Assembly (NCBI GenBank): GCA_018304465.1
Contig: JAGVWC010000006.1
Location: forward strand, 1-50,047
From: Candidatus Iainarchaeum sp.
GTDB taxonomy: Archaea > Iainarchaeota > Iainarchaeia > Iainarchaeales > JAGVWC01
DNA length: 50,047 bases
Direction of reading: 5' to 3'
Made by a program: the position numbers and the translations under genes. Position 1 is the first letter of the stretch. Every line of letters starts with the position of its first letter. Under the pieces are notes generated by a model, which was not told where the DNA came from, did no database searches, and saw nothing but the letters and a program-made list of their open reading frames with translations. This document shows positions 6,066 to 45,232 of the stretch, one piece after another.

Positions 6066-6553
6066 AACTGGAAATCGAACGAAAATTCCTCGTCAAAAAA
6101 AAGCCGAATTTGAACGGAATCGCACCGGTTCAACAAGAACGATTCTATCTTTTCCAAGGTCAAGACATCGAACTTCGCATCCAAACCAAAAACGATTATT
6201 TCGAACTCGAACGAAAAACCAACCAAGGCGAATACTCCCGCGACAGCCAAAAACTCGCATTAAGCAAAACCGAATACGAAACCCTCAAAAAAATCGGCCA
6301 AAACAAAACCCTTCGAGACAGCTATTCGATTACAAAAAAACCCAATGTCAAACTCAAAATTTATCACGGCGCTCACGAAGGATTAATCCGCGCCGAAATC
6401 GAATTCGATTCGATTGAAGACGCCAAACGATTCCAACCATTCGACTGGATGGGAACCGAAATCACCGCAACACCGCTTGGACGTGACACCGAACTTGGAC
6501 AACTCAACCGAAACCAATTCCTAGCCGAACTCAAAAAACATCAACATAACTAA
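6062..6553 (+). CDS. CYTH domain protein 2
   Basis: EIERKFLV, LRIQ, AEIEFDS, WMGTEIT; ATGA overlap with CYTH1. Confidence 0.88.
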   Translation: MKLEIERKFLVKKKPNLNGIAPVQQERFYLFQGQDIELRIQTKNDYFELERKTNQGEYSRDSQKLALSKTEYETLKKIGQNKTLRDSYSITKKPNVKLKIYHGAHEGLIRAEIEFDSIEDAKRFQPFDWMGTEITATPLGRDTELGQLNRNQFLAELKKHQHN

Positions 6554-8844: not shown

Positions 8845-8878
8845 GAAGCATATTCCATTATTTGGCAGTGCCTGATTA

Positions 8879-10543
8879 TTATTCCCATAACCCGTTTTTG
8901 CAGGTTTTACTGTTGACCACGGTGCACGAAGAATGACAATATCCGTCCGCCAGACAATAACCCAATGGACAGCACGCATTCGATCCGGGCACTAGAAGAT
9001 CCTGCGCGCAGCCAAGACCAAGCGAATCACATTGCGAACAAGCGTTCCCCTGTTGAGGCGTATTCCCCGTAGGCGCATAAGTGATTGGAGTCGATTGACA
9101 CCTGTTGCTCGAATTGCAGGCATCCGAAGTACAAATGTCATCGTCGTTGCAGTCCGCGGTATTTTGACAACAATTCGCAATACTGGCATGTTTACAAGTA
9201 AAGTCAACGCAAGCGTCTTGCGTGCATGCATTGGAATCCCCGCATTCGTTGTCCGTTCGGCAGTTCCCGCATCCGCTCGTAAAAAACGTGCATTCTTGGC
9301 ACCGAAGCGCGCCCGGCGCAAATCCAAGCGTTTCACACGTTTTTCCTTTGAAATCAATCAAATCGCAATCTTCAGTCCCTTCTGCCACTCCGTCTCCACA
9401 AACCACGCCGCAATCCGAATCATTCTTCGAAGTACAACCCGCCGGACAGCATTCGTCGCTGTTCACGCATTGCTGCAAGGAAAGAATCGGAACCGGCAAT
9501 TCTGCGGTTTCTTCTTTTGAAGCCCGGTTTTTTCCGCAATCTTGGACTTCAAACACATAGCTTGCGGTTCCAGAACCACATTCCGTAACCTCGTTTGGGG
9601 TCAACCAATCCGGATCCGGCAACCGGTCATCTTCAACCACTGCTTTCATTGTAACTAGAGTCATTTTCCACCGTTTGCCCTCGCTGCAAGCAAAGCATTC
9701 GCCGCCAAGCTGGCTATAACTGTCCATTCGTGGAGCATTGTCCATCAGTTTTTCGGCGCACTCGTATACAATATAACCTGCGGAACCTGTCGAACCAATG
9801 CAACCCAGTAAAGAGGCGATTTGCAAAGGAGAAAGAGCGCCTGCCGTGATGGCCGTCAATGGAACTTCCAACACCGTTACGGTACACGTACCGACAGCTG
9901 CAATGATGGACCACCCCAAGTCACCTTTGTGGTCCATGATGCATCTCCAAAAGCCCCCGCCTTTTTCTTCGCAAAAACCGAATGAAAGAACATCCGGCCC
10001 CAACACATTCACCGGCACAACAGCGGTTTCACCTGCAAAAGAAATTTGTTGAACATCCGAAAAACCCAGCAAACGAAATTCTTCTCCGTTTCTTGCGATG
10101 CCCGCATTGGAGTCGAAAAAAGTGTAATGCTGCTCATCTTCAAAATAGAGGAGAAGCGATTTCGAAAAAGTCTCGAATTCAATCCGTTGCGCAAAAAGCG
10201 CTTTTCCCCGAGCGTTGGCAAGCAAAACCATTGTCACGTTGTTTCCATCCGAAAAACTTGATTTTACAGCGCCCAAAAAAGTTCCAAATCCTTTTTCTTT
10301 AGCAAAACCAAGCACAGCATACAATTCATCATCTGAATCAAATTCAAGATCAAGATCTGATTTTGAAAGCGTTCTTTGTTCCACCAGCCGCGGGTCCTTG
10401 AGCGCATTAAGCGTTCCAAGCTGTTCGTCACTTAAGCCATTGACATCAGAAGAAAAAGGATCGCCAATCGGCGGCCAAACGCACCCAAAAAGAACAACCA
10501 GTAAAAACAAACTCGCCGCGAAAAAAAACCGGGACATCCACAT
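8879..10543 (-). CDS. Secreted/lipoprotein-like Cys-rich surface protein
   Basis: Signal ending VVLFGC; CGDGVAEGTEDCD and C-x-D-x-x-x-CT-x-DAC repeats; start probably ATG 10543 or 10537. Confidence 0.8.
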   Translation of the reverse strand: MWMSRFFFAASLFLLVVLFGCVWPPIGDPFSSDVNGLSDEQLGTLNALKDPRLVEQRTLSKSDLDLEFDSDDELYAVLGFAKEKGFGTFLGAVKSSFSDGNNVTMVLLANARGKALFAQRIEFETFSKSLLLYFEDEQHYTFFDSNAGIARNGEEFRLLGFSDVQQISFAGETAVVPVNVLGPDVLSFGFCEEKGGGFWRCIMDHKGDLGWSIIAAVGTCTVTVLEVPLTAITAGALSPLQIASLLGCIGSTGSAGYIVYECAEKLMDNAPRMDSYSQLGGECFACSEGKRWKMTLVTMKAVVEDDRLPDPDWLTPNEVTECGSGTASYVFEVQDCGKNRASKEETAELPVPILSLQQCVNSDECCPAGCTSKNDSDCGVVCGDGVAEGTEDCDLIDFKGKTCETLGFAPGALRCQECTFFTSGCGNCRTDNECGDSNACTQDACVDFTCKHASIANCCQNTADCNDDDICTSDACNSSNRCQSTPITYAPTGNTPQQGNACSQCDSLGLGCAQDLLVPGSNACCPLGYCLADGYCHSSCTVVNSKTCKNGLWE

Positions 10544-10797
10544 CGTAAAGTTAATGAAATTGGTATTATTAAATGTATTTTTCGCTTTCTTCGTTAACCC
10601 ATCTAAGGCATCCGGCCAGAGGGGAATAGTAACAGCAGGGTAAAAAAGAACAATTTTTCGAATCAAGAGTCGAGCCTTCCATCCGCGTTCCTGATTCAGA
10701 ATCAATTGAAAGCAGATACGATCCGTCGCCTTTGGCGTCTAAATAGCTATGGATTTGATTGGCGGGTTTTAAAGGATTCGCTGGCAAAAATGTGTAC

Positions 10798-16488: not shown

Positions 16489-17295
16489 TTAATTTGCCCC
16501 CGTCAATTGTTGTTTTCCCAACGGAACGAAATGAACCCAATCCAAAATAGACGCGTTCTTTTCAAGAACTCCGACCACAATGAACCGCTTGTCGAATTTT
16601 TCAAACGTGTCTCCGATTTTGGAAAAAATTTTCTCCGAGCGCATCAATTCCGATTCGCTTGCACCCAAAACCACAGGATAATACGCAACACCCGCGATTT
16701 CATGCGGTGAAAAATCCGTGAATGTTCCTTCGGCCAGTTTCGCAAAACCCGGCAATCCCGCGTTTCGATCAAGACGATAAAAAACCTTGGCCGTTTCTCC
16801 GTCCATGAGAATAAACAACCGGTTGGAGTCACCCGAAATCTTTTCGAATTCAACAGGGCTTAAAAAATGGAAATAATCCGCAGGACCATTGGTTTTCATG
16901 AGAATTCCTTCGACAGAAATCGTCAAACCAAAAAAACCATCCAATGAATCCCCGGCTTTTAGAAACAATTTTTCGGACTTCATCATGTCGGCTTCCAGTT
17001 CCCCAAGCACCATGGATCCTTTTTCAGGCAAAGGGTTTCCTTCAAACACGGAATACTTTGAAAGCGCGTTCGATTTGGCCAATGCAAACACTTTCGCGTC
17101 CCCCGCCGGCGAAAAACCGACTTTTAATTGAATTGCATCGTAAACCGCGGGATCCGAAACAGGTTCGTTCATTTCCGCATTTTGAAGTCCAAGTCCCGAT
17201 ACTCCAAAATAACCGATACTGACGACTACCAGCACTAATACGGAAAAAATAATCGGAATTTTTTCCTTCAAAATCCACTCGTGCACATTCACCAT
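16489..17295 (-). CDS. Single-TM protein with two tandem MacB-periplasmic-like repeats
   Basis: N-terminal TM; internal repeat VLG..E..MM.SEK.F.K.GD....F....V.G.L; lies within the copper operon. Confidence 0.7.
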   Translation of the reverse strand: MVNVHEWILKEKIPIIFSVLVLVVVSIGYFGVSGLGLQNAEMNEPVSDPAVYDAIQLKVGFSPAGDAKVFALAKSNALSKYSVFEGNPLPEKGSMVLGELEADMMKSEKLFLKAGDSLDGFFGLTISVEGILMKTNGPADYFHFLSPVEFEKISGDSNRLFILMDGETAKVFYRLDRNAGLPGFAKLAEGTFTDFSPHEIAGVAYYPVVLGASESELMRSEKIFSKIGDTFEKFDKRFIVVGVLEKNASILDWVHFVPLGKQQLTGAN

Positions 17296-17296
17296 T

Positions 17297-17653
17297 TTAA
17301 CCACCTTTCGCCATTGCTTTTTGGCAGGCCGCACAACCCGTGCTTTTCCCGCTTTTTTCAAAATGATCGTAGGCATCCCGAAGAATGCACCAGCAAAATT
17401 CCTGCGAAGGCCGGAACAACTTTTCCCGGCCGCGTTTTTCAAACACCACGACGCCCACTTGTTCCAGATACTTGAGTTGATGCGAAACCGCGGACAACGT
17501 CATGGACTCCCGCCCGATTACGTCATAAACTTCGTTCACGGTTTTCGGACCGGCCACGAGCGCTTTAAGCATCTTAAGACGGGTTTCGTCCGCGATCGCG
17601 GAAAAAAACCGCAGGACTTTTTTATCGATTTCGGTTGAAGATTTGGACGCCAT
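17297..17653 (-). CDS. ArsR/SmtB metalloregulator with C-terminal CxC and CxxC
   Basis: IADETRLKML, SAVSHQLKYL, FCWC...GCAAC. Confidence 0.9.
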   Translation of the reverse strand: MASKSSTEIDKKVLRFFSAIADETRLKMLKALVAGPKTVNEVYDVIGRESMTLSAVSHQLKYLEQVGVVVFEKRGREKLFRPSQEFCWCILRDAYDHFEKSGKSTGCAACQKAMAKGG

Positions 17654-28038: not shown

Positions 28039-28905
28039 TCAAAACGGAAAATAGTCATCCGGATTCTTTTTTTTCGGACGCACGATTTCGGATTCATCCG
28101 ATTCCTCGGTTTGGGTTTGCGCGTCCCCAGGTGCATCCGAAGATTCTTCCTCGGATTCTTCTTGGATTTCCTCGCTTTCCTGCACCGCGGTTCCGACAAA
28201 CGACGCGCCCCGAATCGCGGACTTGAAATTATCCATGTTGTTGGCGTTCAAAAAAATCGCTCCCACCTGGCTGCGCTTTAGAATCATGGCTGACACCAAA
28301 TCCACAGGAAAATTCTGACCTGGTTTGTGCTCGGCTTTGGACGCAAGATCGAACAATTTTTCAAACGACAACTCGCGGTACAGCCGCGCGCGCGAATTCG
28401 TCGCCGGATTCGAACTGTAAATCCCATCCGTGTTGCTTAGATTCACAAAAGTCGCGTTCAATTTTTCGGCCAGCAACGCGCCCACGGCATCCGTGGTAAA
28501 CCCCGGAACCAACCCGCCAAACACCGGGATTTTTCCCTGTTCCACCAGCGGCGTTGCTTCCTGAAACGACGTCAAAACAAACGGATGCGCCTTGTCCAAC
28601 GCGCACAAAAACAAAAACGCGTTGGCCCGCGTAATCGCGATTCCCAATTCATCCAACGCGAAATTATTGGCGTTTACTTCTCGCGCCGCCGAAATATACG
28701 ACCGAGCGATCGGTCCGCCCCCGACTACCAACGCAAATTTATACCCTTCGGAGGCCAAATTACTAATAGAAACGGCGATTTCACGAATCCTGGCCACGTT
28801 TGGCGTCGAATCCGAAAACAAGGCGCTTCCGCCCACCGAAATCACGAAAATCGAATGGTTTCCACCGTTGGCCGAAGGCACTGAAGAAGAACTCGTTTCT
28901 TCCAT
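28039..28905 (-). CDS. pyrH: Archaeal UMP kinase with acidic tail
   Basis: ISVGGS, VVGGG..AR.YI, DELGI..TRANA, PGFTTDAV, DGIY..NP. Confidence 0.93.
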   Translation of the reverse strand: MEETSSSSVPSANGGNHSIFVISVGGSALFSDSTPNVARIREIAVSISNLASEGYKFALVVGGGPIARSYISAAREVNANNFALDELGIAITRANAFLFLCALDKAHPFVLTSFQEATPLVEQGKIPVFGGLVPGFTTDAVGALLAEKLNATFVNLSNTDGIYSSNPATNSRARLYRELSFEKLFDLASKAEHKPGQNFPVDLVSAMILKRSQVGAIFLNANNMDNFKSAIRGASFVGTAVQESEEIQEESEEESSDAPGDAQTQTEESDESEIVRPKKKNPDDYFPF

Positions 28906-28989
28906 GGCCTGGTCAAACAGATTCGAAAACAAAACAATCCCGTTTTTTTTAATATTAAAAACAAGTTTGTTATATAAAAATGTGAGCGT

Positions 28990-31740
28990 ATGAAAAGCCA
29001 ATTAGAGGAAGTCAACGAAGCCGAAGTCGCGGTGTTCAAGAAAAACCTCAAAAAAATGGAACAATACCGCGGACGCGGAACCGAATTGATCAGTGTCTAC
29101 ATTCCCGAAAACGCGGACCGCGGAAGCGTCATGGGACAACTCACCGAAGAACTCTCGCAAAGCTCCAACATCAAATCCCCAAGCACCCGCAAAAACGTGC
29201 AAGGCGCGTTACGCAAAATCAGCCAGTTTCTCAAAAGCATCGATTTCAAAATTCCCGCCCGCGGCATCGTGGTGTTTGCGGGAAACGTTTCTCCCGTTGA
29301 AGGACGAAGCGATTTGCGCTTGTTCACGATTCACCCGCCCAAAGATCTTAAAACGAAATTATACTGGTGCGACTCGCAGTTCCATTTGGAACCCTTAAAA
29401 GACATGGTGAAAAGCACGGACATTTACGCCATCATCGTGCTGGACAAACGCGAAGCAACGGTCGCGGTTCTCACCGGAAAAAAATTCGACATCGTCGGAC
29501 ACTTCACCAGCATGGTCGCGGGAAAATCACGCGCCGGAGGACAATGCCTCAGCTCAGACACATTAATTCCATTGCCCGATGGCGATATCATCGAAATGAA
29601 AGACACGCATAATCCGCTCGGGGTATTGTCAGGAGACTTTGAAAAAAGCAGCATCATACCCTCGGCGGTGACCGACAAATGGGAAACCGAGAAAACGCCG
29701 CTAAAGATTGTAACGAAATATCCTCGCTTTGAGATTCAAAGCTCCAAAGACCATACTTTTTTCGTTCTTGAAAACGGAAAAGTAATTGAAAAAAAAGCAG
29801 AAAATCTGAAAGTAAAAGACCGGTTATTGTTTCCCGAAAAAATAACCATATTTGGAAAATACCAACCGCTTCAAACCCAGTTCTTTAATTCATACCAAAT
29901 ATCCAAAGCCGGAAGAGAGCTATTGATTGCCAAACGCCTTGAAAAAAAATGGGGACAAACGCAATTTGGAAAACGAATCGGAATTACGCAAACAGGAGTA
30001 TCCATTGTTGAGCGAGCAAAAAGCAATATTCGCCATGACTTGCTAATACAGTACCTGCTCGCTTTGGAGATTCCGTTCGAATCCTTTGTATATACTTATT
30101 GCACCCCGCTCCAGAATCACCGTCTTCCGCCGATATTGGACATTCCATTAGCCCAATTTATCGGATATTGGATCGGGGATGGAAACACCGAAAAAGAAAG
30201 GGTTTGTCTATCCGAGCAAGACCCGCAACTTTCGAACTACTATGCCGAGCATGCAAAAAAATTATTCAACGCCAATGTGCAAGTAAAGCACCGAAAAGAA
30301 AAAGGATATTTTGAAACCCGCATCTATGGAAAACCCATTGTGAAATTCCTTCAATCCGAGTTCCCCGAAAAACACGGCGCACTCGAATCGGAGATTCCCA
30401 AAAAAGTTTTGCGCTCTCCCGATAATGTCGTTGCCGCTTTTTTGAAGGGAATATTCGACGCGGAAGGATATGTATCCGACCGCGGGTTAGGACTCGGAAT
30501 CAACAACAAAAAGCTCGCCAAGCAACTCCAATTGGCATTACTCCGTTTCGGCATTATCACTTCAGTACATCCATATGATAACCGGCGGAATCCATATTCA
30601 AAGAACATCCGCTACACGCTTCAAACCCGGGAGACTAGATCATTAGAACTATTCCAAAAACAAATCGGCTTTTCATCCGAAGCCAAAAATAAAAAACTGA
30701 ATGCGCACATACAGAAAGGAAACACTCGAAGCGTCGTGCGCCAAATCCCCACACCCGGAAGCGAAGTTAGAAAAATTATTGAAAAAAATGGCTGGAAAAA
30801 ACAACGGTTCATTTCATCCAATATGTATCTCCAAGACCGCCGAAATATCAGTAAGCAAGCCTTCGAACGAACCATCCTGGCCAAAACAAAAACAAATCCG
30901 ACGCTGTATCAAGAAATTGAAAAAATAGCCGAACAGGAACTCATGCCAGTCGAAATTTTCCGTATCACGGGATCCGATACTCCCATTTCAATGGTGGATA
31001 TTAGCGTACAAAACCAAAACTTCGTTGCGGGGGGACTCATCGTACACAATTCGAGCGTTCGCTTCGAGCACTTGCGCGAAGAAGCCGCCAAAGACTTCTT
31101 CAAAAAAGTATCCGAAAAAACCAACCAGATTTTTTCCGATTATCAGGACAAGCTTAAAGGCCTCATCATCGGCGGACCGGGTCGCACCAAACACGAGTTT
31201 TTGGAACGCGAACTCCTCGATTACCGCTTAAAAGAAAAAATCATGGGAATCCTCGACTGCTCGTACACCGATGAAAGCGGCATCCGCGAAATCGTTCAAA
31301 AATCCGAAGATTTGCTTAAAGACGCGGAAATCACGCATGAACGCCAAATCGTCAACGAGTTCTTCGAAAAAATCGTCAAAGGCGACTTGGCGACCTATGG
31401 TCAAAAAGAAGTCGAAAACGCGTTGGATATCGGAAAAGCATCCATCCTTCTCATTTCCGAGGCATTGGAGTGGATTGTTCTCAAAAAACGCTGCGACAAA
31501 GAGGATTTCGACGAGGAAATCATCATCAAAGACCCCTTGAATTTCGATGAAAGCAAGGAAAGATGCTCAAAATGCGGCGGACCCATTGAAATATTGGAGC
31601 AAGTCGACTATGTGGATTGGATGATGGAAAAAACCAAATCCATCGGAGCCGAAACCCGCGTCATCAGCCGCGAAACCCCCGAAGGCGAAACCTTTTTCAA
31701 AGGATTCGGAGGCATCGGCGCCATTTTACGCTACAAATAA
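28990..31740 (+). CDS. prf1: Peptide chain release factor aRF1 containing an intein (spliced length 414 aa)
   Basis: GRGTELISVYIP, NIKS, YWCDS.F, GGQ|S..RF, GFGGIGAILRY. Confidence 0.96.
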   Translation: MKSQLEEVNEAEVAVFKKNLKKMEQYRGRGTELISVYIPENADRGSVMGQLTEELSQSSNIKSPSTRKNVQGALRKISQFLKSIDFKIPARGIVVFAGNVSPVEGRSDLRLFTIHPPKDLKTKLYWCDSQFHLEPLKDMVKSTDIYAIIVLDKREATVAVLTGKKFDIVGHFTSMVAGKSRAGGQCLSSDTLIPLPDGDIIEMKDTHNPLGVLSGDFEKSSIIPSAVTDKWETEKTPLKIVTKYPRFEIQSSKDHTFFVLENGKVIEKKAENLKVKDRLLFPEKITIFGKYQPLQTQFFNSYQISKAGRELLIAKRLEKKWGQTQFGKRIGITQTGVSIVERAKSNIRHDLLIQYLLALEIPFESFVYTYCTPLQNHRLPPILDIPLAQFIGYWIGDGNTEKERVCLSEQDPQLSNYYAEHAKKLFNANVQVKHRKEKGYFETRIYGKPIVKFLQSEFPEKHGALESEIPKKVLRSPDNVVAAFLKGIFDAEGYVSDRGLGLGINNKKLAKQLQLALLRFGIITSVHPYDNRRNPYSKNIRYTLQTRETRSLELFQKQIGFSSEAKNKKLNAHIQKGNTRSVVRQIPTPGSEVRKIIEKNGWKKQRFISSNMYLQDRRNISKQAFERTILAKTKTNPTLYQEIEKIAEQELMPVEIFRITGSDTPISMVDISVQNQNFVAGGLIVHNSSVRFEHLREEAAKDFFKKVSEKTNQIFSDYQDKLKGLIIGGPGRTKHEFLERELLDYRLKEKIMGILDCSYTDESGIREIVQKSEDLLKDAEITHERQIVNEFFEKIVKGDLATYGQKEVENALDIGKASILLISEALEWIVLKKRCDKEDFDEEIIIKDPLNFDESKERCSKCGGPIEILEQVDYVDWMMEKTKSIGAETRVISRETPEGETFFKGFGGIGAILRYK
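29545..31050 (+). mobile_element. Intein (502 aa) with LAGLIDADG homing endonuclease and Xre-HTH insert
   Basis: Block A CLSSDTLI, block B SKDH, LAGLIDADG motifs IGYWIGDG and LKGIFDAEG, block F MVDISV, block G IVHN/S; codon usage differs from the exteins. Confidence 0.95.
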
Positions 31741-35058: not shown

Positions 35059-35712
35059 TTATTGCACCGATCCCGCCATTCCGTTCACGGCATCGATCAC
35101 GGACTGGGCATTTGGAAATCCGCGCGAGATCACCCAAAATGACAAGTTATTCAGGGAATCAAAATCTTTTGACTGCACCGAGACGGATCCCTTTTCGAAC
35201 ACCGCGAGGTTTTTTTCCCGCGACGGATCCGGCCACTTGATCAAAACCTTTTTTCCCGAAAAATCATTCACAAACGACAAGCATTCGTCTTTGGTCAATT
35301 CCACGTCGCGCAACACGTCCCCCATGTTCGAGCGACAACCGAGTAAAGTTCCTTTTGAATCGTGTTCGAAATACAGCATCGTGACGTTTTTCTGATTTCC
35401 GATCAACACGACGGAAAACAAATTCGCGGCATTGGCCAGATACGGATTGGCGAGGCCTTCGCCGTTACGCAACTCCACCCCCACCAAATACTGGGTGTCC
35501 GAAGAAAACAACGAAATTTCGTTTGGAATCGGACCCGAATTCGATCCCAGCATTAAAGAGGGGGTTTCTTCCACAAAACGAAACGGCTGATACGTCAAAA
35601 CCGCAACCGCGGCCACCAACATGAGAATCAAAACAACCAAAAAACCCGCGATGAACTTCCAATTCATCTTTTTTTCCGAAACGGAATTCGAAGCACTTTT
35701 CGTCACAGCCAT
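35059..35712 (-). CDS. Hypothetical single-TM protein
   Basis: N-terminal TM, 217 aa, co-oriented with GT2. Confidence 0.75.
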   Translation of the reverse strand: MAVTKSASNSVSEKKMNWKFIAGFLVVLILMLVAAVAVLTYQPFRFVEETPSLMLGSNSGPIPNEISLFSSDTQYLVGVELRNGEGLANPYLANAANLFSVVLIGNQKNVTMLYFEHDSKGTLLGCRSNMGDVLRDVELTKDECLSFVNDFSGKKVLIKWPDPSREKNLAVFEKGSVSVQSKDFDSLNNLSFWVISRGFPNAQSVIDAVNGMAGSVQ

Positions 35713-35799
35713 ATACCAAATCCCCAAAAAAACTCTTTTAAATGCCCGCTAATGACCCGCAAAACCCCAAAGAAAACGCAGATTAAGAAGATGAAAACA

Positions 35800-35846
35800 G
35801 GTTAAAAAAAAATAGAAGAAGAGAGGAGAGCCAAAACTCTCCTCTC
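35800..35846 (-). terminator. Hairpin plus U-tract after the S-layer gene
   Basis: GAGAGGAGAG-CCAAAA-CTCTCCTCTC (35821-35846), followed on the minus strand by a T-rich run. Confidence 0.8.
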
Positions 35847-35861
35847 ACGAAATTATCGGAT

Positions 35862-38727
35862 TTACTGAACGAGTGCGTCCAAGGTGTTAATAAGGTCTTG
35901 GGCTGCGCGTCCGGTATCGTCCGCAGTGTATCCGGCTACAATCATGTCGCCGTTAGGCAACTTCTCGGCCTTCATATCGCCCGACTTTGTCAACGCGTCT
36001 TGCAGCGTCGTATTGTCGGCCAATGTGAGGTTTCGAGCTAGGCTGTTGACCAGGTATCCGCCTACGATGATGACTTTTCCGGCCGGGCGAGTCACGTCGG
36101 TAAACACCAAGTTTCCTTGGAGTGGTACGACTTTCTCGTAGCTGGCGGGGGTACAGGCGCCTCCTGCGGCGCAAGTTCCAGTCACATTGGTGACGGTTAC
36201 TTTGGTTCCTGACGGGGTCGTCTGGGTTGTGTTCAAAGTCAGACCCGTCAAGTCATCTCCGCCGGTCGGCGTGGTCGTCGTGGCTGATCCACCAACGATC
36301 AAATCGATGTAGCGGCGATTCTGCGGCATAGTTGCGGTTACAACACCGTCGGCCAAAACGACTTTCGATCCCCAATCGGTGTAGGCTTGGTGGAGATAGG
36401 GTTCGTCGTTTCGCAACGACATGCTATATTCCCATGTTCCGTTGAAGTTGACGTCCGAAGAGTAGTTTGAGAGGTTCACATTCGGGAACGTCACGGTTTT
36501 GTGGGTAGCAGAGTCGATGTATACGTTCATGTCGTAGGTGCCCGTGGTGTTGTTTTCGTCGATTGCAAGCTGCGCGACAGAGAACGAATTATCCGCTGGG
36601 TTTCCGCCAATGTCCAAGACATCGGGGAAGTAGTATTGCGGATCGGTTGAGATGATTTGTCCCAATTCACCGGTGTCGGTTCCAAACAGTCGGACATGCT
36701 TGTTGTATTCCGCGGTCATGGTTTGGGCATCCAACAACAACCATACGCTCGGCGAGTAAGTCTCGTTCACGTAGAGGGCGTAGTTGTAGGTTTGGCTGTT
36801 GGCTCCTTCCAAAACGACGGGTGATGCGCGGTAAGCTAGTGGAAAGTCCACCGAGGTAGTCGGTCGAGGTTGCGCTCGTGATCGTTGCTTTGGCGAAGGT
36901 GACGTTTCCGTCGGCCAAACAGTTCAGGTGCTTGTTACCGTCGACTGCTGGGAATACGGTACATGTGTAGGCCACGTTGTTCAGATCAAGAGTCCGAGTG
37001 TAGTTTCCAACGATGGCGATCATGTTCATATCGAGTCCGCGAGCCGTGTCGAAGATCGTGTTACTATCGTCGGTCACCACATCGATTCCGTTCAGAACGT
37101 TGTTGTCCTTTCCGAGCGTGAAGTTCAGATCGGTGGTATTGGTTTTATAGTACACGGTCTTCGTGTCGAACGAAAACGAGTTTCCGCTCGCCGAAGTACT
37201 CAGGTTGATGTAGAACGGGATATTGTGTTCTGTTCCTGAGGTATCCTTGTACTTGATGTTGTTGCTTCCAACAACGATCGGGGTTGTGGATTCTTTTTCT
37301 TCCCAACCTTTGAAGTCGATGTAGGCATAGCCTTCATTCGGGTCTCCGGTTCCGGCCAAGAGCTTGACGGGATCCGTTGTCTTACCGGTCAATGATTGTC
37401 CTGGCGTTGATGGAAAGATTGGGTTTGTGGCATCCCATACTTTTCGGCTGTTTCCGATGGCAATCGACAGAAGCTTGTTGGCATCGGTCGAAGTTCCAGC
37501 GGTTCCAGTTCCTTCGCTTAGCGTTACTTTCCAGTCCCACGGACCGTTGGTATTCGAAGCGTCGTAGGGGTATCCTTTTCCGTCGTACAGGTCAACAGAC
37601 GCTGCTCCGACGTACAAGTCCACGGTTCCGGTGCTCAAGTCTTGGGTGTTGGTCACCAAAATATCGTCGAAGTAAATCGAGTCTTGGACGACATAGTTTC
37701 CTTGGGCATCCTGGAACTGCACGTAGTTCTTACGCTGAGTAGACTGGGTGTTGATGACCACTCCGTCTTCGTCGTACAGGGTGAACTTGGCCGTGTAAGA
37801 TCCACCAGATGAGGATTGTCCAATCTGGGTGAGCGTGACGGTGAGAGTTTCTCCTGCCCAAGCATAGCCTGCCTTTCCTTTTACGGTAAAGGTATCGTCT
37901 ACGCTAAAGGTCTGCTTGGCCGTATCTTCGATCAATCGAACATAGTTGATGGACGAAGTGTCGGTGTTTGCGACTTTTTGGACTACATAGCGCTTTCCAA
38001 ACAATGGAATACGTTGGTTGTCGTTCTGGTCGTCCTGAAAGTCGGTTGCTCCGGCTGTTGCTTCGTAGCGGTAGATTCCGGTTCCAAGGTCAACGGTGTA
38101 GTTAAAGTCGTTTTCTCCGTTGACGAACAAGGCCAGGTCTTTCCACTGCGTACCGGTCGTGTCGAATCGTGCATCCGCATTGATTCCGATGTATTCTTTC
38201 ATCGTAACCGTTGTATCAGATCCGTTATAGCGGAGCGTGTCCGTGGCTTCGTACAAGGACGGCAACTGCGAATGGCTCAGTTGAATCGGGCGTCCGGTCA
38301 AGGTCAATCCTTGGACAGTCGTCGATCTTCCGAATTCGTAGCGTCCGTTGGTCGTACTTCCCTGCACTGAGGTCAGATACGAGTCTTTGTACTCTTTTCC
38401 GCCTGAGACAGTCGTGCTTCCGCCGATGGTCAGGTCCACTGAGACGTTGCTTAATGTGGCATTACCGTCTCCGGCACCCGAGGTCACCGATACGGTGCGG
38501 GTTGAGAGTTGTGCTACTTTTGCCGCAATGTTTCCGGCCCAGACAAAGTCTGAGACAGCCGCATTGGTTCCGGCAACGACGCTGACGACAGGTTCTCCCT
38601 GTGCGTTGACAACATCGTCTTTGGTCAGGTTGGTGAACGCGGCGGTCACGATTGGCGCGACTGCGGTTCCCACCAAGACGGCTCCGGTTGCGATTGCAGC
38701 CAGTTTCTTGATGTTTAGTTTCTTCAT
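35862..38727 (-). CDS. S-layer protein (S_layer_N/S_layer_C type), split by a frame break near 36850
   Basis: MKKLNIKKLAAIATGAVL signal, VVAG..AA.SD...A..IA, C-terminal IIVGGYLVNSL...IVAGYTADDT..AA; GAGGTGA RBS; C-ending codon bias; ORFs 36667-38727 and 35862-36851 in different frames. Confidence 0.9.
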
Positions 38728-38766
38728 GTTTTCTTTTCACCTCACATGAAAACGATCAAAATGGAT

Positions 38767-38850
38767 CCTATATTATAGCAAGCTCCAAAAAAAGGCGGAG
38801 AATGCTAAGATACAGGCTAAAGTATTGATTGCGTCAGGGTGTTTAAATAG
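38767..38850 (-). promoter_or_regulatory. S-layer promoter and 5'-UTR hairpin
   Basis: TTTAAA box near 38842-38847; stem CCUGUAU..UAGCA..CUCC / GGAG..UGCUA..AUAUAGG at 38767-38816, with a G-U pair valid only on the minus strand. Confidence 0.65.
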
Positions 38851-39059
38851 CTTTCGATTATTGTACCAATCCCCCGGATTAAACACGGTTTACAAGGCGT
38901 TTTTTACGCTTTTACGGGAAAACGGTGTCGTGAATCAACGAACCCGAAATAGAGGTCAAAAACAAGCCATAAACGCTGAATAGAAGGAGTATTTTTCGAA
39001 GCCAAAAAAGGGCTGATCCCCAAAAAAGAACGAATCACACCCAAAACAGCCGTTTTTGG

Positions 39060-39704
39060 TTACTTTAAGAGCTTTCGGTTAAATTCTTCCAGTTCCGTAC
39101 GGTTCATGAACTTGGTCAGGGTCTCGGCATACCGATGAATCCAGAGACTCCAATCGTTTAATCCATCCTGAAAATCGTCTCCCGTAAACTCGATTTTGGA
39201 CGGAGAAAGCAATTCCACGGTCGTCGGACCATACGTATACATAAAACGAACCAGGGTTTTGAAATTTTTCAAGGATACATTCAAATCCAAATAACTCGAA
39301 TACGAATCCTCTTGTTTTAGAACCGGCGCCTGGGTGCACTCATACACCAAAAAATCCTTGTCGGCTTTGAGAATATCCGCCAAACGCGTCAATTGTTTTT
39401 GCAATACTTCCGGTTCCACGGCTTGACCTTCAATCGTTGCCCGCACCCGAAACGCGTTCTTGTCTTTTTCAGCCAATTTTTTTCGCCTCGATACCTCTTC
39501 GGCAATGTTGGTCTTTAAAGCGTATCGCGTTGGAAACCCATCCCGCTTTTCGATCAATTCCAACCGCAACATTTCCTTGATATCCGTCGAAAGCTCGTTC
39601 ATCGGAATATTCAATTGTCCCCGCAATTCATCCACGGTTTTGGCGCCATGCATTAAAAGCAACGCGATTCTCTTCTGATTCGAGGAAAAAGCCACACAAA
39701 ACAC
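39060..39704 (-). CDS. N-terminal wHTH fused to an uncharacterised archaeal domain
   Basis: HTH-like KTVDEL...L...IKEML...LIEK; C-terminal SSYLDL...F..LVRFM..YGPTTVE. Confidence 0.75.
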   Translation of the reverse strand: MFCVAFSSNQKRIALLLMHGAKTVDELRGQLNIPMNELSTDIKEMLRLELIEKRDGFPTRYALKTNIAEEVSRRKKLAEKDKNAFRVRATIEGQAVEPEVLQKQLTRLADILKADKDFLVYECTQAPVLKQEDSYSSYLDLNVSLKNFKTLVRFMYTYGPTTVELLSPSKIEFTGDDFQDGLNDWSLWIHRYAETLTKFMNRTELEEFNRKLLK

Positions 39705-39761
39705 CGATTACCAAAAACTAACTTCCAAAAGCATAATAAACAAGCGCACTATATTAAGGTA

Positions 39762-40079
39762 ATGGTTTTGGAAGACATCCCGAACATGCTGGGCGAAGCC
39801 ACGCAAACCCCCGCCGCTTCCACCGCCCAAACCCTCTTGGCCAACCAAGACCCCGTCGTACTCATTATCGGCGTCGTTCTCATCATCGCCACGGTCCTGT
39901 TATTGTTGTTTCTCAAAAAAATCCTCGTCAACAGCCTCTCCGGGCTCGTACTGTGGGCCATTGCGACATTCGTGTTTCACGTCGACCTTCCGTTTTACGC
40001 CAGCCTCATTGTTTCGCTGGTATTCGGGCCCGCGGGCATCGGCACCCTGATGATTTTACGCTTCATGGCAATCGCATGA
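39762..40079 (+). CDS. BofA-like small membrane protein
   Basis: LKKILVNSLSGL.L...DLP....IVSLVFGPAG. Confidence 0.75.
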   Translation: MVLEDIPNMLGEATQTPAASTAQTLLANQDPVVLIIGVVLIIATVLLLLFLKKILVNSLSGLVLWAIATFVFHVDLPFYASLIVSLVFGPAGIGTLMILRFMAIA

Positions 40080-40095
40080 TGAAAGGAGAAAAAAA

Positions 40096-40275
40096 TGACG
40101 GCCCGGTCCCAACCACAATGCGACTTTGTACAAGCCTTCTTTAACCGCCATCTCGGAGGACCGCCATTTCCCGGCGGATACCGTCCAAGAGAAGCCGGGC
40201 AAGCACAATATCTTGGAATGGGCGGGCTCAAAGCGGTCTTCTGTGCCCAAGCCGCTTGCAGAAACATTCTTGGCA
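40096..40275 (-). ncRNA. Candidate structured ncRNA (possibly a divergent short SRP RNA)
   Basis: GC-rich segment with several hand-folded helices, ending at a minus-strand T-tract; no convincing ORF. Confidence 0.45.
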
Positions 40276-40335
40276 TTTGTTTTGAAAAGAGTATTCGTTT
40301 GAAAGGATTTCTTTTTTACAAATGACACATTTTTT

Positions 40336-41919
40336 TTATGTGCATTGGAATTCGCCGGTGTTGGTGACTCCGCAGTTCCATGTTTGTCCGTTGGGACTGG
40401 TCATGTTTAGGTTGCCGTCTGTTCGAATGCTTGTTTTTTGTTGGATATTTAGATCGGTTGTTATTCGAACGGGTCCGTTTCCGCTGTTGATGTCAAAGCT
40501 GTTCCAGTTGTGGGCGAGGCTTCCCCATTCGTTTTTTGTGGGATAGCTTGAATGTATGAATATTGTTGGATTTGCTTGGAATCCGTGTCCGAAATTGAAT
40601 GCGGGTTGTTTTAACTCGTTTTTGTCTGCAATGAGTAGGTATCTTCCGCCTCTGTGCACTGCGCTGTAGTTGGTGTCTGCCAAGCCGATCATGACGGGAT
40701 AGTATGTATTGTTGTCTCCTGCGCCGGGTATTTGGTCGTTGTAACTGGCGCGTATGATGGGTGCGGCGGTTCCGGCGCCAAGTGCCATGGTGGCGTTGTC
40801 GTTGTACATGAAGCCGTATTCTGTTGCGGTTGATCGGAAGTATCCGGCGTAAGGTGTTCCACCGGTTAATATGTTTGTGTTGTTGTTGGGGCTTACGTAT
40901 ATGATTCCGTTTGTGCCGCTTGCGGTAATGGCGGGATATGATCCGTTTAACACTTTTAGCGCTATGTTGTTGGGTGATTGTCCGGTTATTCTTATTTGGT
41001 TTGCGTCGATTGTTCTTGCGGCATTTAGGTCTCGTCCGACATTGACATCGTTTTTTGTATAAAGGTTTCCGGTATCGTTTTCTATTTTGAACAAGGGTGT
41101 TCCATTGTTGTTTCGGATCATGAAATACTTGGTTGCCGCAGTAAGTATTTCTATTGGTGTTCCGGTTGCATTAATATAGAATGTGGGTTCGGTGGTCATA
41201 GGATAGTATCCTGGTACTGCAAGTACAAAGAGTGCCATATTGGCGATATTTCCAAAACCTAATTGTTCTAATTGGTTTACAAAAATTGAATTTGTGAATG
41301 TCCAGTCGGATCCGGTGATCGTTGCGCCGCTTAAACTACCCGTAAAATTATAGGTTCCGCTGAATGTACCCCCATTTTTTTTGATAAAATTAGTGTCGGA
41401 GTACCCGTTCCAGGTATCAACGTACATTGAATCCGCGAAGACGGTTCTTGCGTTGATATCTCGTTGGTTGGAATCCAGATTCGGTGCTAAGTAATCTGTG
41501 TTGGGTACTGCGATCATTGCCGTGTATTCGTTTTCAACTGTGCTTGTTTTTATTATTCCTGTTTCCGAAAACTTGTCAAGATATCCGTTATCATTCACGA
41601 TAAGCAAGGGAGACCCAAAAGCAGTTCCAAGAATATCGCTTAATTTGATGTTAAGCGGTTGAAAAAAGCTATTGCTTACATACCATAATATATTTCCAGT
41701 TACTGTTTCCGTTAAATTTACTCCGCCAATTTCGTCTGCTTTAAGTTGAAAAACGTTTCCTGCGGATGGCATTGTAAGCATAGCCGCATTGTTAACGTCC
41801 ACTGTTGAAAAATCTGTGTTTGCGTCCGTCGCAGGAATAACCCACACTTTTTCTCCCGTAACAGTATACCCAAACAAAACAACAAGCAAAATAAATCCAA
41901 TCAAAAAAATGTTATTCAT
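40336..41919 (-). CDS. Secreted beta-rich, tail-fibre/adhesin-like protein
   Basis: Signal peptide MNNIFLIGFILL; Asn/Thr/Gly-rich; C-terminal NMTSPNGQTWNCGVTNTGEFQCT; AT-rich with atypical strand skew. Confidence 0.75.
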   Translation of the reverse strand: MNNIFLIGFILLVVLFGYTVTGEKVWVIPATDANTDFSTVDVNNAAMLTMPSAGNVFQLKADEIGGVNLTETVTGNILWYVSNSFFQPLNIKLSDILGTAFGSPLLIVNDNGYLDKFSETGIIKTSTVENEYTAMIAVPNTDYLAPNLDSNQRDINARTVFADSMYVDTWNGYSDTNFIKKNGGTFSGTYNFTGSLSGATITGSDWTFTNSIFVNQLEQLGFGNIANMALFVLAVPGYYPMTTEPTFYINATGTPIEILTAATKYFMIRNNNGTPLFKIENDTGNLYTKNDVNVGRDLNAARTIDANQIRITGQSPNNIALKVLNGSYPAITASGTNGIIYVSPNNNTNILTGGTPYAGYFRSTATEYGFMYNDNATMALGAGTAAPIIRASYNDQIPGAGDNNTYYPVMIGLADTNYSAVHRGGRYLLIADKNELKQPAFNFGHGFQANPTIFIHSSYPTKNEWGSLAHNWNSFDINSGNGPVRITTDLNIQQKTSIRTDGNLNMTSPNGQTWNCGVTNTGEFQCT

Positions 41920-42400
41920 GGTTACACGCATACAACTTTGTTTTTCCACATAAACCAACTAAGGAAAAGTTTTTATTCAAATCCTGAACCGTTAAAACAA
42001 GCGCATCATTACAATCAAAACCCGCTAAATATTCATCCGAATACCCAAACTTGTATTTTGGTTTCCCTCCAAAAAAAAGTAATCCAATGCCCCAAATCCC
42101 AATCGTTTTGAATCTGTTTTCCGTTTGACAACAAAACCGCTTTTTGAACAGCCAACACATCGTTTTGGTTCGGTCGCTCGTTTTGCATTCCAAGAACCGC
42201 ACACCCAAAAAAAACCAAAGAACGATTCAACCAAAACCGGTTTGGATGGAATCGAATTTTCTAATCCATAAATATAATTCAAGTAATGATACGAATCCAC
42301 TCCGATTGGAAGCGGCCTTGCAAACAAAACGATTAAAGTTTCGGCAAGCAACAAACCAGTTAACAATAAAGCGTTTTTTGGAACATGCACAAACTCGGTT
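41912..42400 (-). pseudogene. Frameshifted, internally deleted STT3/AglB-like membrane glycosyltransferase remnant
   Basis: GVDSYHY N-terminal loop; NDWDLGHWI resembles WWDYG; pieces lie in different frames joined at T8 tracts (about 42071-42078 and 42207-42214). Confidence 0.55.
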
Positions 42401-42596
42401 ATTTGAACAAAATACGATTCAAGAAAGTCAAAACTTATCTTCACAATTTTACCCTTTTGAAAACCATTTCCAATTCTTTGTCATAATTTATTTTAAAAGC
42501 CACAATTTGTTGTCGGCCAAGTTTAAGTCTCCTCTGGAAATGTTTCCAAAGATTTTTGAGAGGTTTCCGCTGCTTTTTTTTCCCGATGAGACAGAT

Positions 42597-42760
42597 TCAT
42601 TGAGTCACCTTGTTTTTTTCCAAGAAACTCCATACGAATAATGCGGCCCCGCCAATTGCACAAATAACCATTAAAGTAAAAAACAATCCGCTGATGTTCC
42701 GCATTGCGTATAAGACAAGAAAAACGCTCATGAGAACCGTTGGCAATCCGGCACGATTAA
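42597..42760 (-). pseudogene. C-terminal fragment of a 2-TM membrane protein
   Basis: LPTVLMSVFLVLYAM...LFFTLMVICAIGGAALFVWSF; no credible start. Confidence 0.35.
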
Positions 42761-43133
42761 ACCAAGCAAACAACCCACGATCCGCATCACAAATGTACAA
42801 GGCACCAGGTCAAAAGTCCGAAGCCGCAAAACAGACGAAGAACGCGCCGCGACCGCCAAGAGAATAAAGCGATATGAGGAACTCAACCAAACACTCGGCG
42901 AAAACTGGAGAGTATATTTCACGAAGCGAGTGATCGATTATGCGCGTGAAAAAGGGATTCCTGTCGTTGCCGAACGACCACAACGCTTTTTCCTGTTTGG
43001 ACCCACGGTACCAGAAAGCGAATACAAGCGCCAACAACGCCAATCGCGACAAACCTACCGCAAAGCGGGGCGCACCGAACACACCGACAAAACCCGGGGA
43101 TTAAGGCCGCACAAACCACGGCAAAGAAAATAG
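42756..43133 (+). CDS. Arg/Lys-rich orphan, 5'-truncated or ATT-initiated
   Basis: Open frame from about 42714 to TAG 43133 with no ATG; host-like codon usage; basic tail RPHKPRQRK. Confidence 0.5.
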   Translation: MKPSKQPTIRITNVQGTRSKVRSRKTDEERAATAKRIKRYEELNQTLGENWRVYFTKRVIDYAREKGIPVVAERPQRFFLFGPTVPESEYKRQQRQSRQTYRKAGRTEHTDKTRGLRPHKPRQRK

Positions 43134-43171
43134 TCGGATTTTTCAAAACAATGCCTAATACTTTTTTGACC

Positions 43172-43276
43172 ATGAAATCGTACGATTGCGACCTCCAACT
43201 CCGACAGCGGCCTTTTTCAAAAAGCCCGGGGAAAACGGTGAAACCGTGAAATCGTTCGACTGCGATCTCCAACTCC
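43172..43276 (+). repeat. 31-bp diverged direct repeat of the TIGR00375 gene start flanking a palindrome
   Basis: 43172-43202 vs 43246-43276, 27/31 identical. Confidence 0.85.
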
Positions 43277-44523
43277 ACGGCCCGTACGCGGGCGGCGTAT
43301 CCAAATATCTTTCCATCCCGCTTTTGGCCGAACAATCGCGTCTCAAAGGCCTTGAAATCCTGGTCACCGGTGACATCCAACACCAAAAATGGTTCGAACA
43401 CGTCAACGCCCATTTAATCGAAAACCAAAACGGCGTGTACATGGACAAAGACGAAAAAACGTTTTTCATCATCGGCACCGAAGTTGAAGACCACCACCGC
43501 ATCCACCACCTGATTTACCTGCCCGATTTAACCGCTGCGGCGGAATTCCGCGAAAAAGTCAAACCATTCGGAATACTCGACTGCTCGATGTGCGGCCGCC
43601 CCAAACTCCGGCAATCCCCCGAACAACTCAGCCAAATCGTTTCGGACGTCGGCGGATTCATGGGTCCCGGTCACTCGTTTACGCCGTACACCGGATTATT
43701 CTCGCGCTACGACTCTGTTGCCGAAGCCTACGGCGACCAAGCCAAAAAAATCCCGTTTCTTGAACTCGGACTCTCCGCGGACACCGACATGGCCGACACG
43801 ATTTTGAGCAACCACCAATACGCGTTTCTTTCATCCTCCGACGCCCATTCAGCTTGGCCGCACCGCCTCGGACGCGAATGGAACCGCATCCGCCTCAAAG
43901 AACCCTCGTTTAAAGAACTCGAAACCGCGGTCTGGGACCGCAGCGGCGAACGCATCGAATTCAACGCGGGTTTGAATCCCCGCGAAGGAAAATACCACGC
44001 CACCGCGTGTAATCTTTGCTACACGCAATACCCCTTGCGCGACGCGATCGAATCCTTCAAAATGAAATGCCCCGCCTGCGGCGGCGACATCAAACGCGGC
44101 GTTGCCGACCGCATCAAAATGCTTTCCGACACCCCAACCGGAAAACATCCGTCGTTTCGCCCGCCCTACAAACACCAGTTGCCGCTCGCCGAAATCATCC
44201 AACTCGCGCTTTTTGCCAAAAGCCCGATGACCAAAAACGTGCAGTCCAAATGGCGCGACTACATTGACGTGTACAAAGACGAAATCAACGTGCTCATTGA
44301 CGCGCCGGAAAGCGAACTCATCGAAACCAATCCGGAAATCGGAAACAAAATCAAGGCGTTCCGAAACGGACTCGTGTACTACACGCCTGGCGGCGGCGGA
44401 AAATACGGAGAACCGCATTTGTTCGATTCCCAAAAAGAAATGGACCAATTCGTTTTAGAAGCCGGAAAACGCTCGCGCGAAAAAAACAAGTTTTCCGGAC
44501 AAAAAAGTCTGAAAGGGTTCTAA
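43246..44523 (+). CDS. TIGR00375 / EndoQ-like PHP-domain nuclease with Zn ribbon
   Basis: DLQLH, TGD..H..W, IHHLI, HSFTP, ELGLSAD, SDAHS, GKYH..AC..C...CPACG. Confidence 0.9.
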   Translation: MKSFDCDLQLHGPYAGGVSKYLSIPLLAEQSRLKGLEILVTGDIQHQKWFEHVNAHLIENQNGVYMDKDEKTFFIIGTEVEDHHRIHHLIYLPDLTAAAEFREKVKPFGILDCSMCGRPKLRQSPEQLSQIVSDVGGFMGPGHSFTPYTGLFSRYDSVAEAYGDQAKKIPFLELGLSADTDMADTILSNHQYAFLSSSDAHSAWPHRLGREWNRIRLKEPSFKELETAVWDRSGERIEFNAGLNPREGKYHATACNLCYTQYPLRDAIESFKMKCPACGGDIKRGVADRIKMLSDTPTGKHPSFRPPYKHQLPLAEIIQLALFAKSPMTKNVQSKWRDYIDVYKDEINVLIDAPESELIETNPEIGNKIKAFRNGLVYYTPGGGGKYGEPHLFDSQKEMDQFVLEAGKRSREKNKFSGQKSLKGF

Positions 44524-45232
44524 ATGCTATCACACTACACTCCAAGATCCAAACGACGAGGATCAAAAAAACCGGTCCCCGTAATCCCCTTTCGTCCTGC
44601 ACACATAACTGCAAAAGGTGTCGGACAAGTCACCTACCGCGTGTTGGATCGAAACCGCCAGCGCGGATATAGCACAACAATTCCTTTCACTAGAACCCCT
44701 GAGGAATACGAAATTATTTCCAAGCAACTGCAGCAAAATGGAGTATACGTTCCACGAATGTTGGCCAAGTCCCATATTCAGAATCGCGTTGAATTTGCTG
44801 ACGGCGGAAAAAACTTATCCCAAGTGCTTCGATCAAAAGCATGGACACACACCCCAGGAAAAAACCCAGACAAAAAAATTATTGAAAAAAATATTTCGAA
44901 TGATTGGCCGAGTTCATCAACTCGGAATCGCACACGGACATCCACACGGATATAACATCATTGTTTCAGGAAGTAAAGTCGGACTAATCGATTTCAGATT
45001 GGCAACGGCTGCGGACCCCTCGATCTGGAGGGATATGAAACGCATCCGACTATTTTTCATTCACGATCATTTCAAACTGATGAGAATAATTAGAGGCGTT
45101 AAACCAATTTTCCGGACTCGGATAGAACAAAAAGCGGTTACGCGCCAGTTGTTTTCAAGCATGATCCGGCAATACCCGTGTAGCGAGAAAATAAAAAAAG
45201 AATTAATCGATTATTGCCTAGAAAATTACTGA
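44524..45232 (+). pseudogene. Frameshifted kinase-fold protein with HGHPHGYN loop
   Basis: N-half (GVYVPRM, EFADGGKNL) and C-half (HQLGIAHGHPHGYN, LIDFR) in different frames; break near ACACACACCCC at 44845-44855. Confidence 0.7.

Follow-up and report, generated by a model that had tools for sequence, protein, structure and literature searches.

The nearest described counterparts of the intein reported here, which interrupts the archaeal class-I release factor aRF1, are the VMA-b inteins of Thermococcales, TliVMA and PhoVMA (7qss, 7qsu, 7qst; Beyer et al. 2022, PMC8966425), whose host is V-ATPase subunit A and whose insertion site is the P-loop. According to the structural account given there, TliVMA, PhoVMA, PI-PfuI and PI-TkoII have their endonuclease separated from the C-terminal Hint half by accessory domains, the helix-turn-helix (HTH)-like accessory domains of TliVMA and PI-TkoII affect the choice of DNA sites cut, and the DNA recognition region of PI-SceI has been shown to contact DNA. 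PI-PfuI (1dq3), PI-TkoII (2cw7) and PI-SceI (1vde, 1lws) are hosted by ribonucleotide reductase (RNR), DNA polymerase and VMA1, respectively. Core translation components contain few inteins, as stated in the main text of an intein survey (Novikova 2016, PMC4760082). We analyzed a 50,047-nucleotide stretch of Candidatus Iainarchaeum sp. (contig JAGVWC010000006.1, positions 1 to 50,047 of the forward strand; hereafter the window) in which the aRF1 gene harbors an element of this kind directly behind its catalytic GGQ motif.

An intein directly behind the catalytic GGQ of aRF1

The interrupted protein was recognized as an archaeal class-I release factor by the presence of eRF1 domains 1-3 and of the NIKS, YxCxxxF and GGQ sequences, which are the named motifs of aRF1. 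Pfam matched eRF1_1 (E 5.7e-12, residues 18-140) and eRF1_3 (E 9.8e-23) in the precursor, and the eRF1_2 match (E 1e-30) was broken into two stretches by the insert. The precursor reads NIKS, YWCDSQF, which fits YxCxxxF, and a single GGQ at residues 183-185. The insert follows in frame, from Cys186 to Asn687, with junctions VAGKSRAGGQ-CLSSDT and GGLIVHN-SSVRFEHL (the hyphen marks the junction here and below), and taking out its 502 residues leaves a contiguous 414-residue aRF1 with an intact GGQS. The preliminary description of this DNA had placed a homing-endonuclease intein here, and the same coordinates, junctions and lengths were recovered by script. It had named a Hint profile search as a check, and Intein_splicing was indeed matched (E 2e-15, spanning precursor residues 212-687), along with LAGLIDADG_3 in two stretches (E 1.9e-20). 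By its sequence and its modeled fold, the insert is thus confirmed as a class-1 intein with a predicted intact LAGLIDADG homing endonuclease.

A search for relatives using precursor residues 150-720 gave 197 matches among 8000 scored candidates, of which 120 were listed, and all 120 of these carried both eRF1 and intein Pfam domains. When the query and the 120 listed relatives were aligned with MAFFT, the GGQ-C and HN-S junctions fell in the same columns in 121 of 121 rows, with serine at position +1 throughout. For conservation analysis and AlphaFold2 modeling the alignment was reduced to 92 rows, composed of the query and 91 of the 120 relatives, by dropping 29 partial or near-duplicate rows. 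Cys1, Ser67, His70, Asp212, Lys381, Asp485, His501 and Asn502 (intein numbering) were invariant in all 92 rows, and endonuclease position 307 was glutamate in 88 and aspartate in 4. Because these positions are invariant or nearly so, the class-1 splicing residues and the two catalytic acids of the nuclease are not only present in the query but also under family-wide constraint.

The AlphaFold2 model of the 502-residue intein (mean predicted local distance difference test score, pLDDT, 96.1; predicted template modeling score 0.93) arranged the modules in the order of a beta-rich N-terminal Hint half (residues 1-119), five helices (121-185), an alpha/beta LAGLIDADG core (about 195-400), a helical domain (405-462) and a beta-rich C-terminal Hint half (466-502). 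A Foldseek search of this model against the PDB returned 7qss (TliVMA, E 8.1e-25, TM-score 0.64/0.74), 1dq3 (PI-PfuI) and 2cw7 (PI-TkoII) as top matches, with E from 8e-25 to 3e-21. PhoVMA (7qst) and PI-SceI were matched further down, and then the free LAGLIDADG enzymes I-DmoI and I-Tsp061I (TM-score on target 0.6-0.73) and WhiA. A phmmer search of the PDB sequences also found 7qss, at E 5.7e-12, making the TliVMA/PhoVMA pair the best match in both sequence and fold. Through the Foldseek matches to I-DmoI, I-Tsp061I and the intein endonucleases, the nuclease core fits the alpha-beta-beta-alpha-beta-beta-alpha fold.

Like the VMA inteins, the aRF1 intein combines a Hint domain with a LAGLIDADG endonuclease and a helical accessory domain ahead of the C-terminal Hint half. 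However, the structural alignments show only 15-17% identity, and the hosts differ. Moreover, the segment between the N-terminal Hint half and the endonuclease, described for the VMA inteins as an unstructured loop of 28-32 residues (PMC8966425), is in the aRF1 intein a folded Xre-type HTH module of about 65-80 residues. PI-PfuI, PI-TkoII and PI-SceI likewise belong to class 1 and pair a two-motif LAGLIDADG endonuclease with additional DNA-binding modules, whereas their accessory modules differ from those of the aRF1 intein in fold and position, and PI-SceI gave lower TM-scores of 0.41-0.48. The positions of all modules are provided in Table 1.

Table 1. Features of the interrupted aRF1 gene (window positions, with residue numbering as indicated)
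Feature	Position	Strand	Description
aRF1 precursor gene, host of the intein	28990..31740	+	Open reading frame of 916 aa plus stop; Pfam eRF1_1, eRF1_2, eRF1_3
N-extein, aRF1 residues 1-185, ending in the catalytic GGQ	28990..29544	+	eRF1_1 at 18-140; first 41 eRF1_2 profile positions stop at the junction
Class-1 intein, 502 aa, Cys1 ... His-Asn, then Ser+1	29545..31050	+	Precursor residues 186-687
N-terminal Hint half, intein residues 1-119	29545..29901	+	Block A Cys1, block B Ser67-x-x-His70; modeled beta strands 7-119
Xre/Cro-C1-type HTH module, intein residues 121-185, five helices	29905..30099	+	Between the N-terminal Hint half and the endonuclease
LAGLIDADG homing endonuclease domain, intein residues ~195-400	30127..30744	+	Motif 1 ...FIGYWIGDGN (Asp212), motif 2 ...FLKGIFDAEGY (Glu307)
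Helical accessory domain, intein residues 405-462	30757..30930	+	Modeled helices, flanked by the endonuclease and the C-terminal Hint half
C-terminal Hint half, intein residues 466-502	30940..31050	+	Block F Asp485, block G His501-Asn502; modeled strands 466-501
C-extein, 229 aa plus stop, first residue Ser+1 of GGQS	31051..31740	+	Remainder of eRF1 domain 2, then domain 3

On this basis we consider the element very probably a canonical selfish homing intein residing in the sole aRF1 gene, with constitutive splicing that rebuilds the GGQS loop. In the proposed sequence of events, the 916-residue precursor would be translated and the two Hint halves would fold together, after which Cys1 would carry out an N-S acyl shift at the Gln-Cys bond and the resulting thioester would be attacked by Ser+1. 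Cyclization of Asn502, aided by His501, would free the intein, and an O-N shift would leave a normal peptide bond in a 414-residue aRF1 with its GGQS loop intact. The freed intein is predicted to act as a site-specific DNase that recognizes and cuts the uninterrupted ...AGGQ-SS/A.RFE... coding sequence, with the Xre-type HTH and the C-terminal helical accessory domain supplying extra DNA contacts, and recombinational repair would then copy the intein into the cut allele. The GGQ loop has to enter the peptidyl-transferase center and is occupied by the insert; activity of the unspliced precursor is therefore not expected, and splicing should be obligatory and is most likely constitutive.

The genome as assembled is 92% complete, and a search of it yielded no class-I release factor with GGQ other than aRF1. 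The other open reading frame (ORF) with an eRF1 fold is a single Pelota-like protein of 358 residues without GGQ or NIKS, and a domain search of this 92%-complete genome detected no bacterial RF-1 domain. The proposal in the preliminary description that translation termination depends on splicing is therefore sound.

Could the insert be a decaying or dead element that no longer splices or homes, or one that does not truly lie within aRF1? Resident inteins often carry an inactive endonuclease domain, and PhoVMA is described as inactive in the VMA intein report (PMC8966425). Nevertheless, this explanation is extremely unlikely for the present insert, as the frame is open across 916 codons, every splicing and nuclease residue is intact and conserved, and an insert that failed to splice would be lethal because aRF1 is the sole factor of its kind. 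An artificial origin is further opposed by the junctions that are common to the 120 listed relatives and by independent contig support, which had been suggested as a check. The 2-kb stretch from 29300 to 31300 is present in 11 listed public runs from groundwater and soil metagenomes, with no RNA data set among them, and in the contigs of the four runs examined both junctions were covered with zero differences and no joints. One run (X3) holds a single 19.8-kb contig over the whole of 29300-31300 and another (X1) two overlapping contigs, while the contigs of X6 and X7 cover 29300-29745 and 30837-31300. X1 and X3 possibly supplied this DNA; no such flag is attached to X6 and X7, although these two appear to be a single data set deposited twice. 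The insert is neither a chance occurrence nor an assembly artefact.

The Xre-type module and its likely role

The preliminary description had noted two LAGLIDADG motifs and an Xre-type HTH within the insert, and Pfam, the AlphaFold model and Foldseek agree on both. Within the whole precursor, HTH_3 scored 20.6 bits, under the cut-off of 23, and when intein residues 110-195 were excised it scored 25.0 bits (E 1.9e-5). A separate model of the HTH (pLDDT 89.3) was matched by Foldseek to C.BclI (2b5a, 32% identity, root-mean-square deviation (rmsd) 2.1), P22 c2, the 434 repressor, SinR, C.Esp1396I and HipB, all of them Xre/Cro-C1 proteins. The best E was only 2e-3, which is usual for a domain that small. 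These proteins share the five-helix fold with the intein module (TM-score 0.6-0.8 on target, rmsd 1.2-2.4) at no more than 32% identity. C.BclI, C.Esp1396I, P22 c2, the 434 repressor and SinR are free-standing dimeric regulators, in contrast to the aRF1 HTH, which is nested as a module within an intein.

The module behaves as a discrete block, with query residues of about 112-195 missing in 15 of the 91 aligned homologues while the remainder is kept, and it is retained in the other 76. HTH_3 was also detected in 54 of 55 rows scanned, all of which were drawn from the HTH-bearing size class, so that this count is no measure of prevalence. The helical domain at residues 405-462 matches, in its modeled position, the accessory domain that TliVMA, PhoVMA, PI-PfuI and PI-TkoII carry (PMC8966425). 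Most likely, the Xre-type HTH is auxiliary and would serve as a second reader of the target site beside this domain.

A different role for the module is conceivable, in which the freed HTH-plus-LAGLIDADG intein would have been co-opted as a transcription regulator resembling WhiA, produced in a fixed ratio to aRF1. The HTH does have a bona fide Xre/C-protein fold whose best structural matches are restriction-modification controllers and phage repressors, WhiA (3hyi, 8dy9) appears among the weaker Foldseek matches to the whole intein, and the module has been kept in most aligned homologues. WhiA is a LAGLIDADG-plus-HTH regulator that is not known to keep the catalytic Asp/Glu residues of the LAGLIDADG motifs. 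In the aRF1 inteins, by contrast, the catalytic acids of both motifs are kept (92 of 92 rows at the first; 88 glutamates plus 4 aspartates at the second), and the homologues without the HTH block retain everything else. The HTH-like accessory domains of TliVMA and PI-TkoII are tied to homing-site cleavage in the VMA intein report (PMC8966425), and a patchy distribution of the intein, described below, speaks against a host function. We therefore regard co-option as highly improbable.

As an observation in its own right, an intein in another protein of this genome, a T2SSE-type ATPase (L017:780-4511:-, contig C8), also carries HTH_3 (E 1.4e-6), located after its LAGLIDADG domain. Xre-type HTH modules thus recur in the inteins of this genome at different positions.

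Distribution of the aRF1 intein and its mode of spread

The site had been suggested as one not classically known to host inteins, and our literature search supports this, as no paper on an aRF1 or eRF1 intein was found, with the limit that the supplementary tables of surveys might list the site. The terms release factor, eRF1, aRF1 and termination are absent from the main text of the Novikova 2016 survey (PMC4760082), supplements aside, and a term look-up gave no occurrence of release factor or eRF1 in PMC10710043. The allele itself is by no means unique. It is common in public DPANN data, where several Joint Genome Institute (JGI) records are already titled 'peptide subunit release factor 1 (eRF1)/intein/homing endonuclease', and names among the matches listed include Diapherotrites/Iainarchaeum, Woese-, Pace-, Aenigm- and Nanoarchaeota. 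Public examples such as P0003 and P0004 ('Candidatus Diapherotrites archaeon') and P0014 ('Candidatus ainarchaeum sp.') have the same host, junctions and four-module architecture and differ from the query by sequence divergence only, the six nearest relatives having 57-64% identity to the query intein. A minority, the 15 of 91 mentioned above, lack the HTH, and some are mini-inteins at the same site. The element is thus an ordinary selfish element already common in related archaea.

Among 40 relatives of the window's genome, the aRF1 site is occupied in 7, by full-length inteins in G034, G035 and G038, shorter ones in G005, G026 and G036, and a mini-intein in G027. It is empty in 30, in which the extein halves adjoin in ORFs of about 406-459 residues (shorter where a contig end cuts the ORF), and 3 were not judged, G008 and G029 being fragments and G014 giving no match. 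All three genomes of the same family are intein-free at this site. One of them, G002, reads AGGQSSVRFEHLREE across it, with nucleotide identity to the window flanks of 26/30 on the left and 22/30 on the right. In a wider sample of 200 phylum-mates, 38 had a close homologue of the intein (E <= 1e-45), each in one ORF, and these ORFs were 840-951 residues long where uncut by a contig end, with four of 512-673 residues; this count overlooks mini-inteins and distant forms. Presence varied within genera (4/7, 3/6, 3/11, 2/17, 1/19, 4/6 and 2/7). The idea that the invariant motif makes a near-undeletable homing target is ordinary intein theory and found no support here, the many empty sites showing the aRF1 site to be more often vacant than occupied. 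The empty sites in 30 of the 40 relatives, together with the polymorphism within genera, lend indirect support to the predicted mobility.

The mini-intein of G027, a relative of the same order, is 144 residues long and reads GGQ-CLVPDS...VVHN-SSHRF at the identical aRF1 site (L008, G027:C1:135367-139209). Full-length, HTH-less and mini forms therefore coexist in this clade.

To the list of intein hosts the aRF1 gene adds a translation-termination factor, hit at its catalytic GGQ loop, and it is one more case of inteins placed at the most conserved active-site codons. As an allele frequent in DPANN archaea that occurs at a single site in full-length, HTH-less and mini versions, it offers a convenient natural series in which one could follow the homing cycle and how accessory DNA-binding modules are gained and lost. 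The predicted endonuclease target is long and highly conserved and may be of some interest for a meganuclease scaffold. Our understanding of termination or splicing is left unchanged.

The placement of the intein in the catalytic loop of a single-copy aRF1 also allows a regulatory reading, proposed in the preliminary description, in which splicing would be conditional on redox, metal or temperature and would thereby tune how much active aRF1 is available and how often stop codons are read through across the genome. With a single aRF1, termination would respond to any shift in the rate of splicing, and conditional protein splicing exists in other archaeal inteins, reportedly including one of RadA (cited in PMC4760082). 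The data gave this proposal no support, and we judge it very unlikely. No second conserved cysteine that could trap Cys1 was found among the 92 aligned inteins, as two other cysteines of the query intein, Cys186 and Cys221, are cysteine in only 35 and 14 rows, respectively. The flanks are nearly free of cysteine: of 91 homologues, a single one has a cysteine within five residues on the N side and none does on the C side, and the +1 residue is serine. A redox switch was accordingly rejected from the cysteine conservation, only Cys1 being conserved. In addition, 30 of the 40 relatives, including the three same-family genomes, manage with an intein-free aRF1, intein presence is polymorphic within genera, and the conserved endonuclease residues are those expected of a mobile element rather than of a domesticated switch. 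The same genome moreover holds about 14 inteins with the same composition signature. There is, in our estimate, a very slim chance, to which none of the findings points, that both roles are combined in intein-rich DPANN archaea, in such a way that the splicing rate would set the active aRF1 pool, with stress that slows splicing raising readthrough or ribosome stalling globally, and the freed HTH-bearing intein would also serve as a DNA-binding regulator present one-to-one with aRF1.

The selfish, constitutively splicing intein remains our preferred reading, and whether it spread horizontally was addressed with intein and extein trees, a comparison that had been proposed at the outset. The tree set was composed of 39 of 108 full-length rows, namely all 23 with an extein identity of at least 0.49 and 16 others picked by hand, 13 of the 121 rows having been dropped earlier as partial or duplicate. 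The inteins nearest to the query (57-64% identity) lie in hosts whose exteins are not the nearest, and several hosts with closer exteins have inteins that match the query no better than inteins from other phyla do. Intein and extein distances from FastTree gave a Spearman correlation of 0.47, which suggests decoupling, and the query intein belongs to a clade of 7 with strong support (SH-aLRT 100 in the 39-row subset) that was not recovered in the extein tree. Approximately unbiased (AU) tests, given below, were not decisive, and horizontal transfer was dropped as a demonstrated outcome of tree incongruence. The distribution is patchy, with empty sites, and transfer may have contributed to it.

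Several points weigh against the selfish homing reading or at least limit it. The AU tests did not reject the intein clade of 7 on extein data (p-AU 0.344) and only borderline rejected host-group monophyly on intein data (p-AU 0.048); because these results are weak, vertical descent with many losses within the phylum could also account for the pattern. The four metagenome runs showed no intein-less allele among their contigs, although contigs drop rare variants, so that little follows for present-day polymorphism in this population. Block B of class-1 inteins is defined as T-x-x-H and here reads Ser67-Lys-Asp-His70, the serine replacing the usual threonine; it is serine in all 92 aligned inteins and thus a conservative variant. 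Splicing is itself a prediction from conserved residues, and DNA cleavage and mobility are likewise predicted. Finally, the distinct codon usage that had been ascribed to the insert is borne out but not extreme. Its G+C content at third codon positions (GC3) is 0.448 and lies under that of the two exteins (0.62 and 0.59), whereas compared with the 37 other ORFs of the window (mean 0.560, sd 0.069) the deviation is modest (z = -1.63), with several ORFs equally low.

Other inteins of the genome and neighboring features

The genome (1.25 Mb, 15 contigs) gave 25 Intein_splicing matches in 13 ORFs, and the aRF1 intein is one of about 14 in it. The hosts besides aRF1 are RNR (two inteins), MCM (at least two), SRP54, the RFC small subunit, RtcB, a HerA-like helicase, two T2SSE-type ATPases, an AAA_23/SMC-like protein, a tyrosine recombinase and one ORF without a host Pfam match. 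All 9 of the other inteins measured had a lower GC3 than their exteins (0.36-0.51 compared with 0.53-0.64, with boundaries approximated from Pfam coordinates). The Hint-bearing loci L013-L024 lie on contigs C6, C8, C11, C13 and C15 of this genome (G000), and SRP54 (L015), RtcB (L022) and the tyrosine recombinase of the Phage_integrase family (L023) are unusual intein hosts. An 857-residue multi-Hint protein (L024:238-2808:-, on C15), which is also among the 13 ORFs, combines N-terminal matches to Hint_2, PT-HINT and Hint modules with a C-terminal Tim44-like domain. Judging from these domains, it is no obvious intein-in-host and may be a Hint-processed secreted or polymorphic protein.

The neighbors of aRF1 are archaeal housekeeping genes, encoding L10e, Dph2, an amino-acid kinase, TruD, aIF2-alpha, GINS and primase. 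In its longest reading, the divergent amino-acid-kinase ORF (28042-29001, minus strand) overlaps the aRF1 start (28990, plus strand) by 12 nucleotides. The true start of the kinase is probably further in, because its Pfam match begins only at residue 51, and the two genes are then likely to be divergent with a short spacer.

Domain 3 of aRF1 spans 135 residues, compared with a profile of 106 positions. The extra stretch, at approximately residues 800-840 (window 31390-31500), contains a C-x(n)-CxxC pattern (KKRCDKED...RCSKCGG) and may be a small zinc-binding insert. Zn_ribbon_8 was matched in 4 of 55 members of the aRF1-intein family.

Elsewhere in the window, positions 35062-45229 hold about 11 ORFs without a Pfam match at E <= 1e-6, several of which have low GC3 (0.38-0.47 at 40339-42638 and 44618-45229), and this may be a variable or foreign region. 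Further low-GC3 ORFs (0.37-0.47) without a Pfam match are located at 5851-6414, 8053-10705 and 16492-17442, with a Fic/DOC protein adjoining at 6854-7783.

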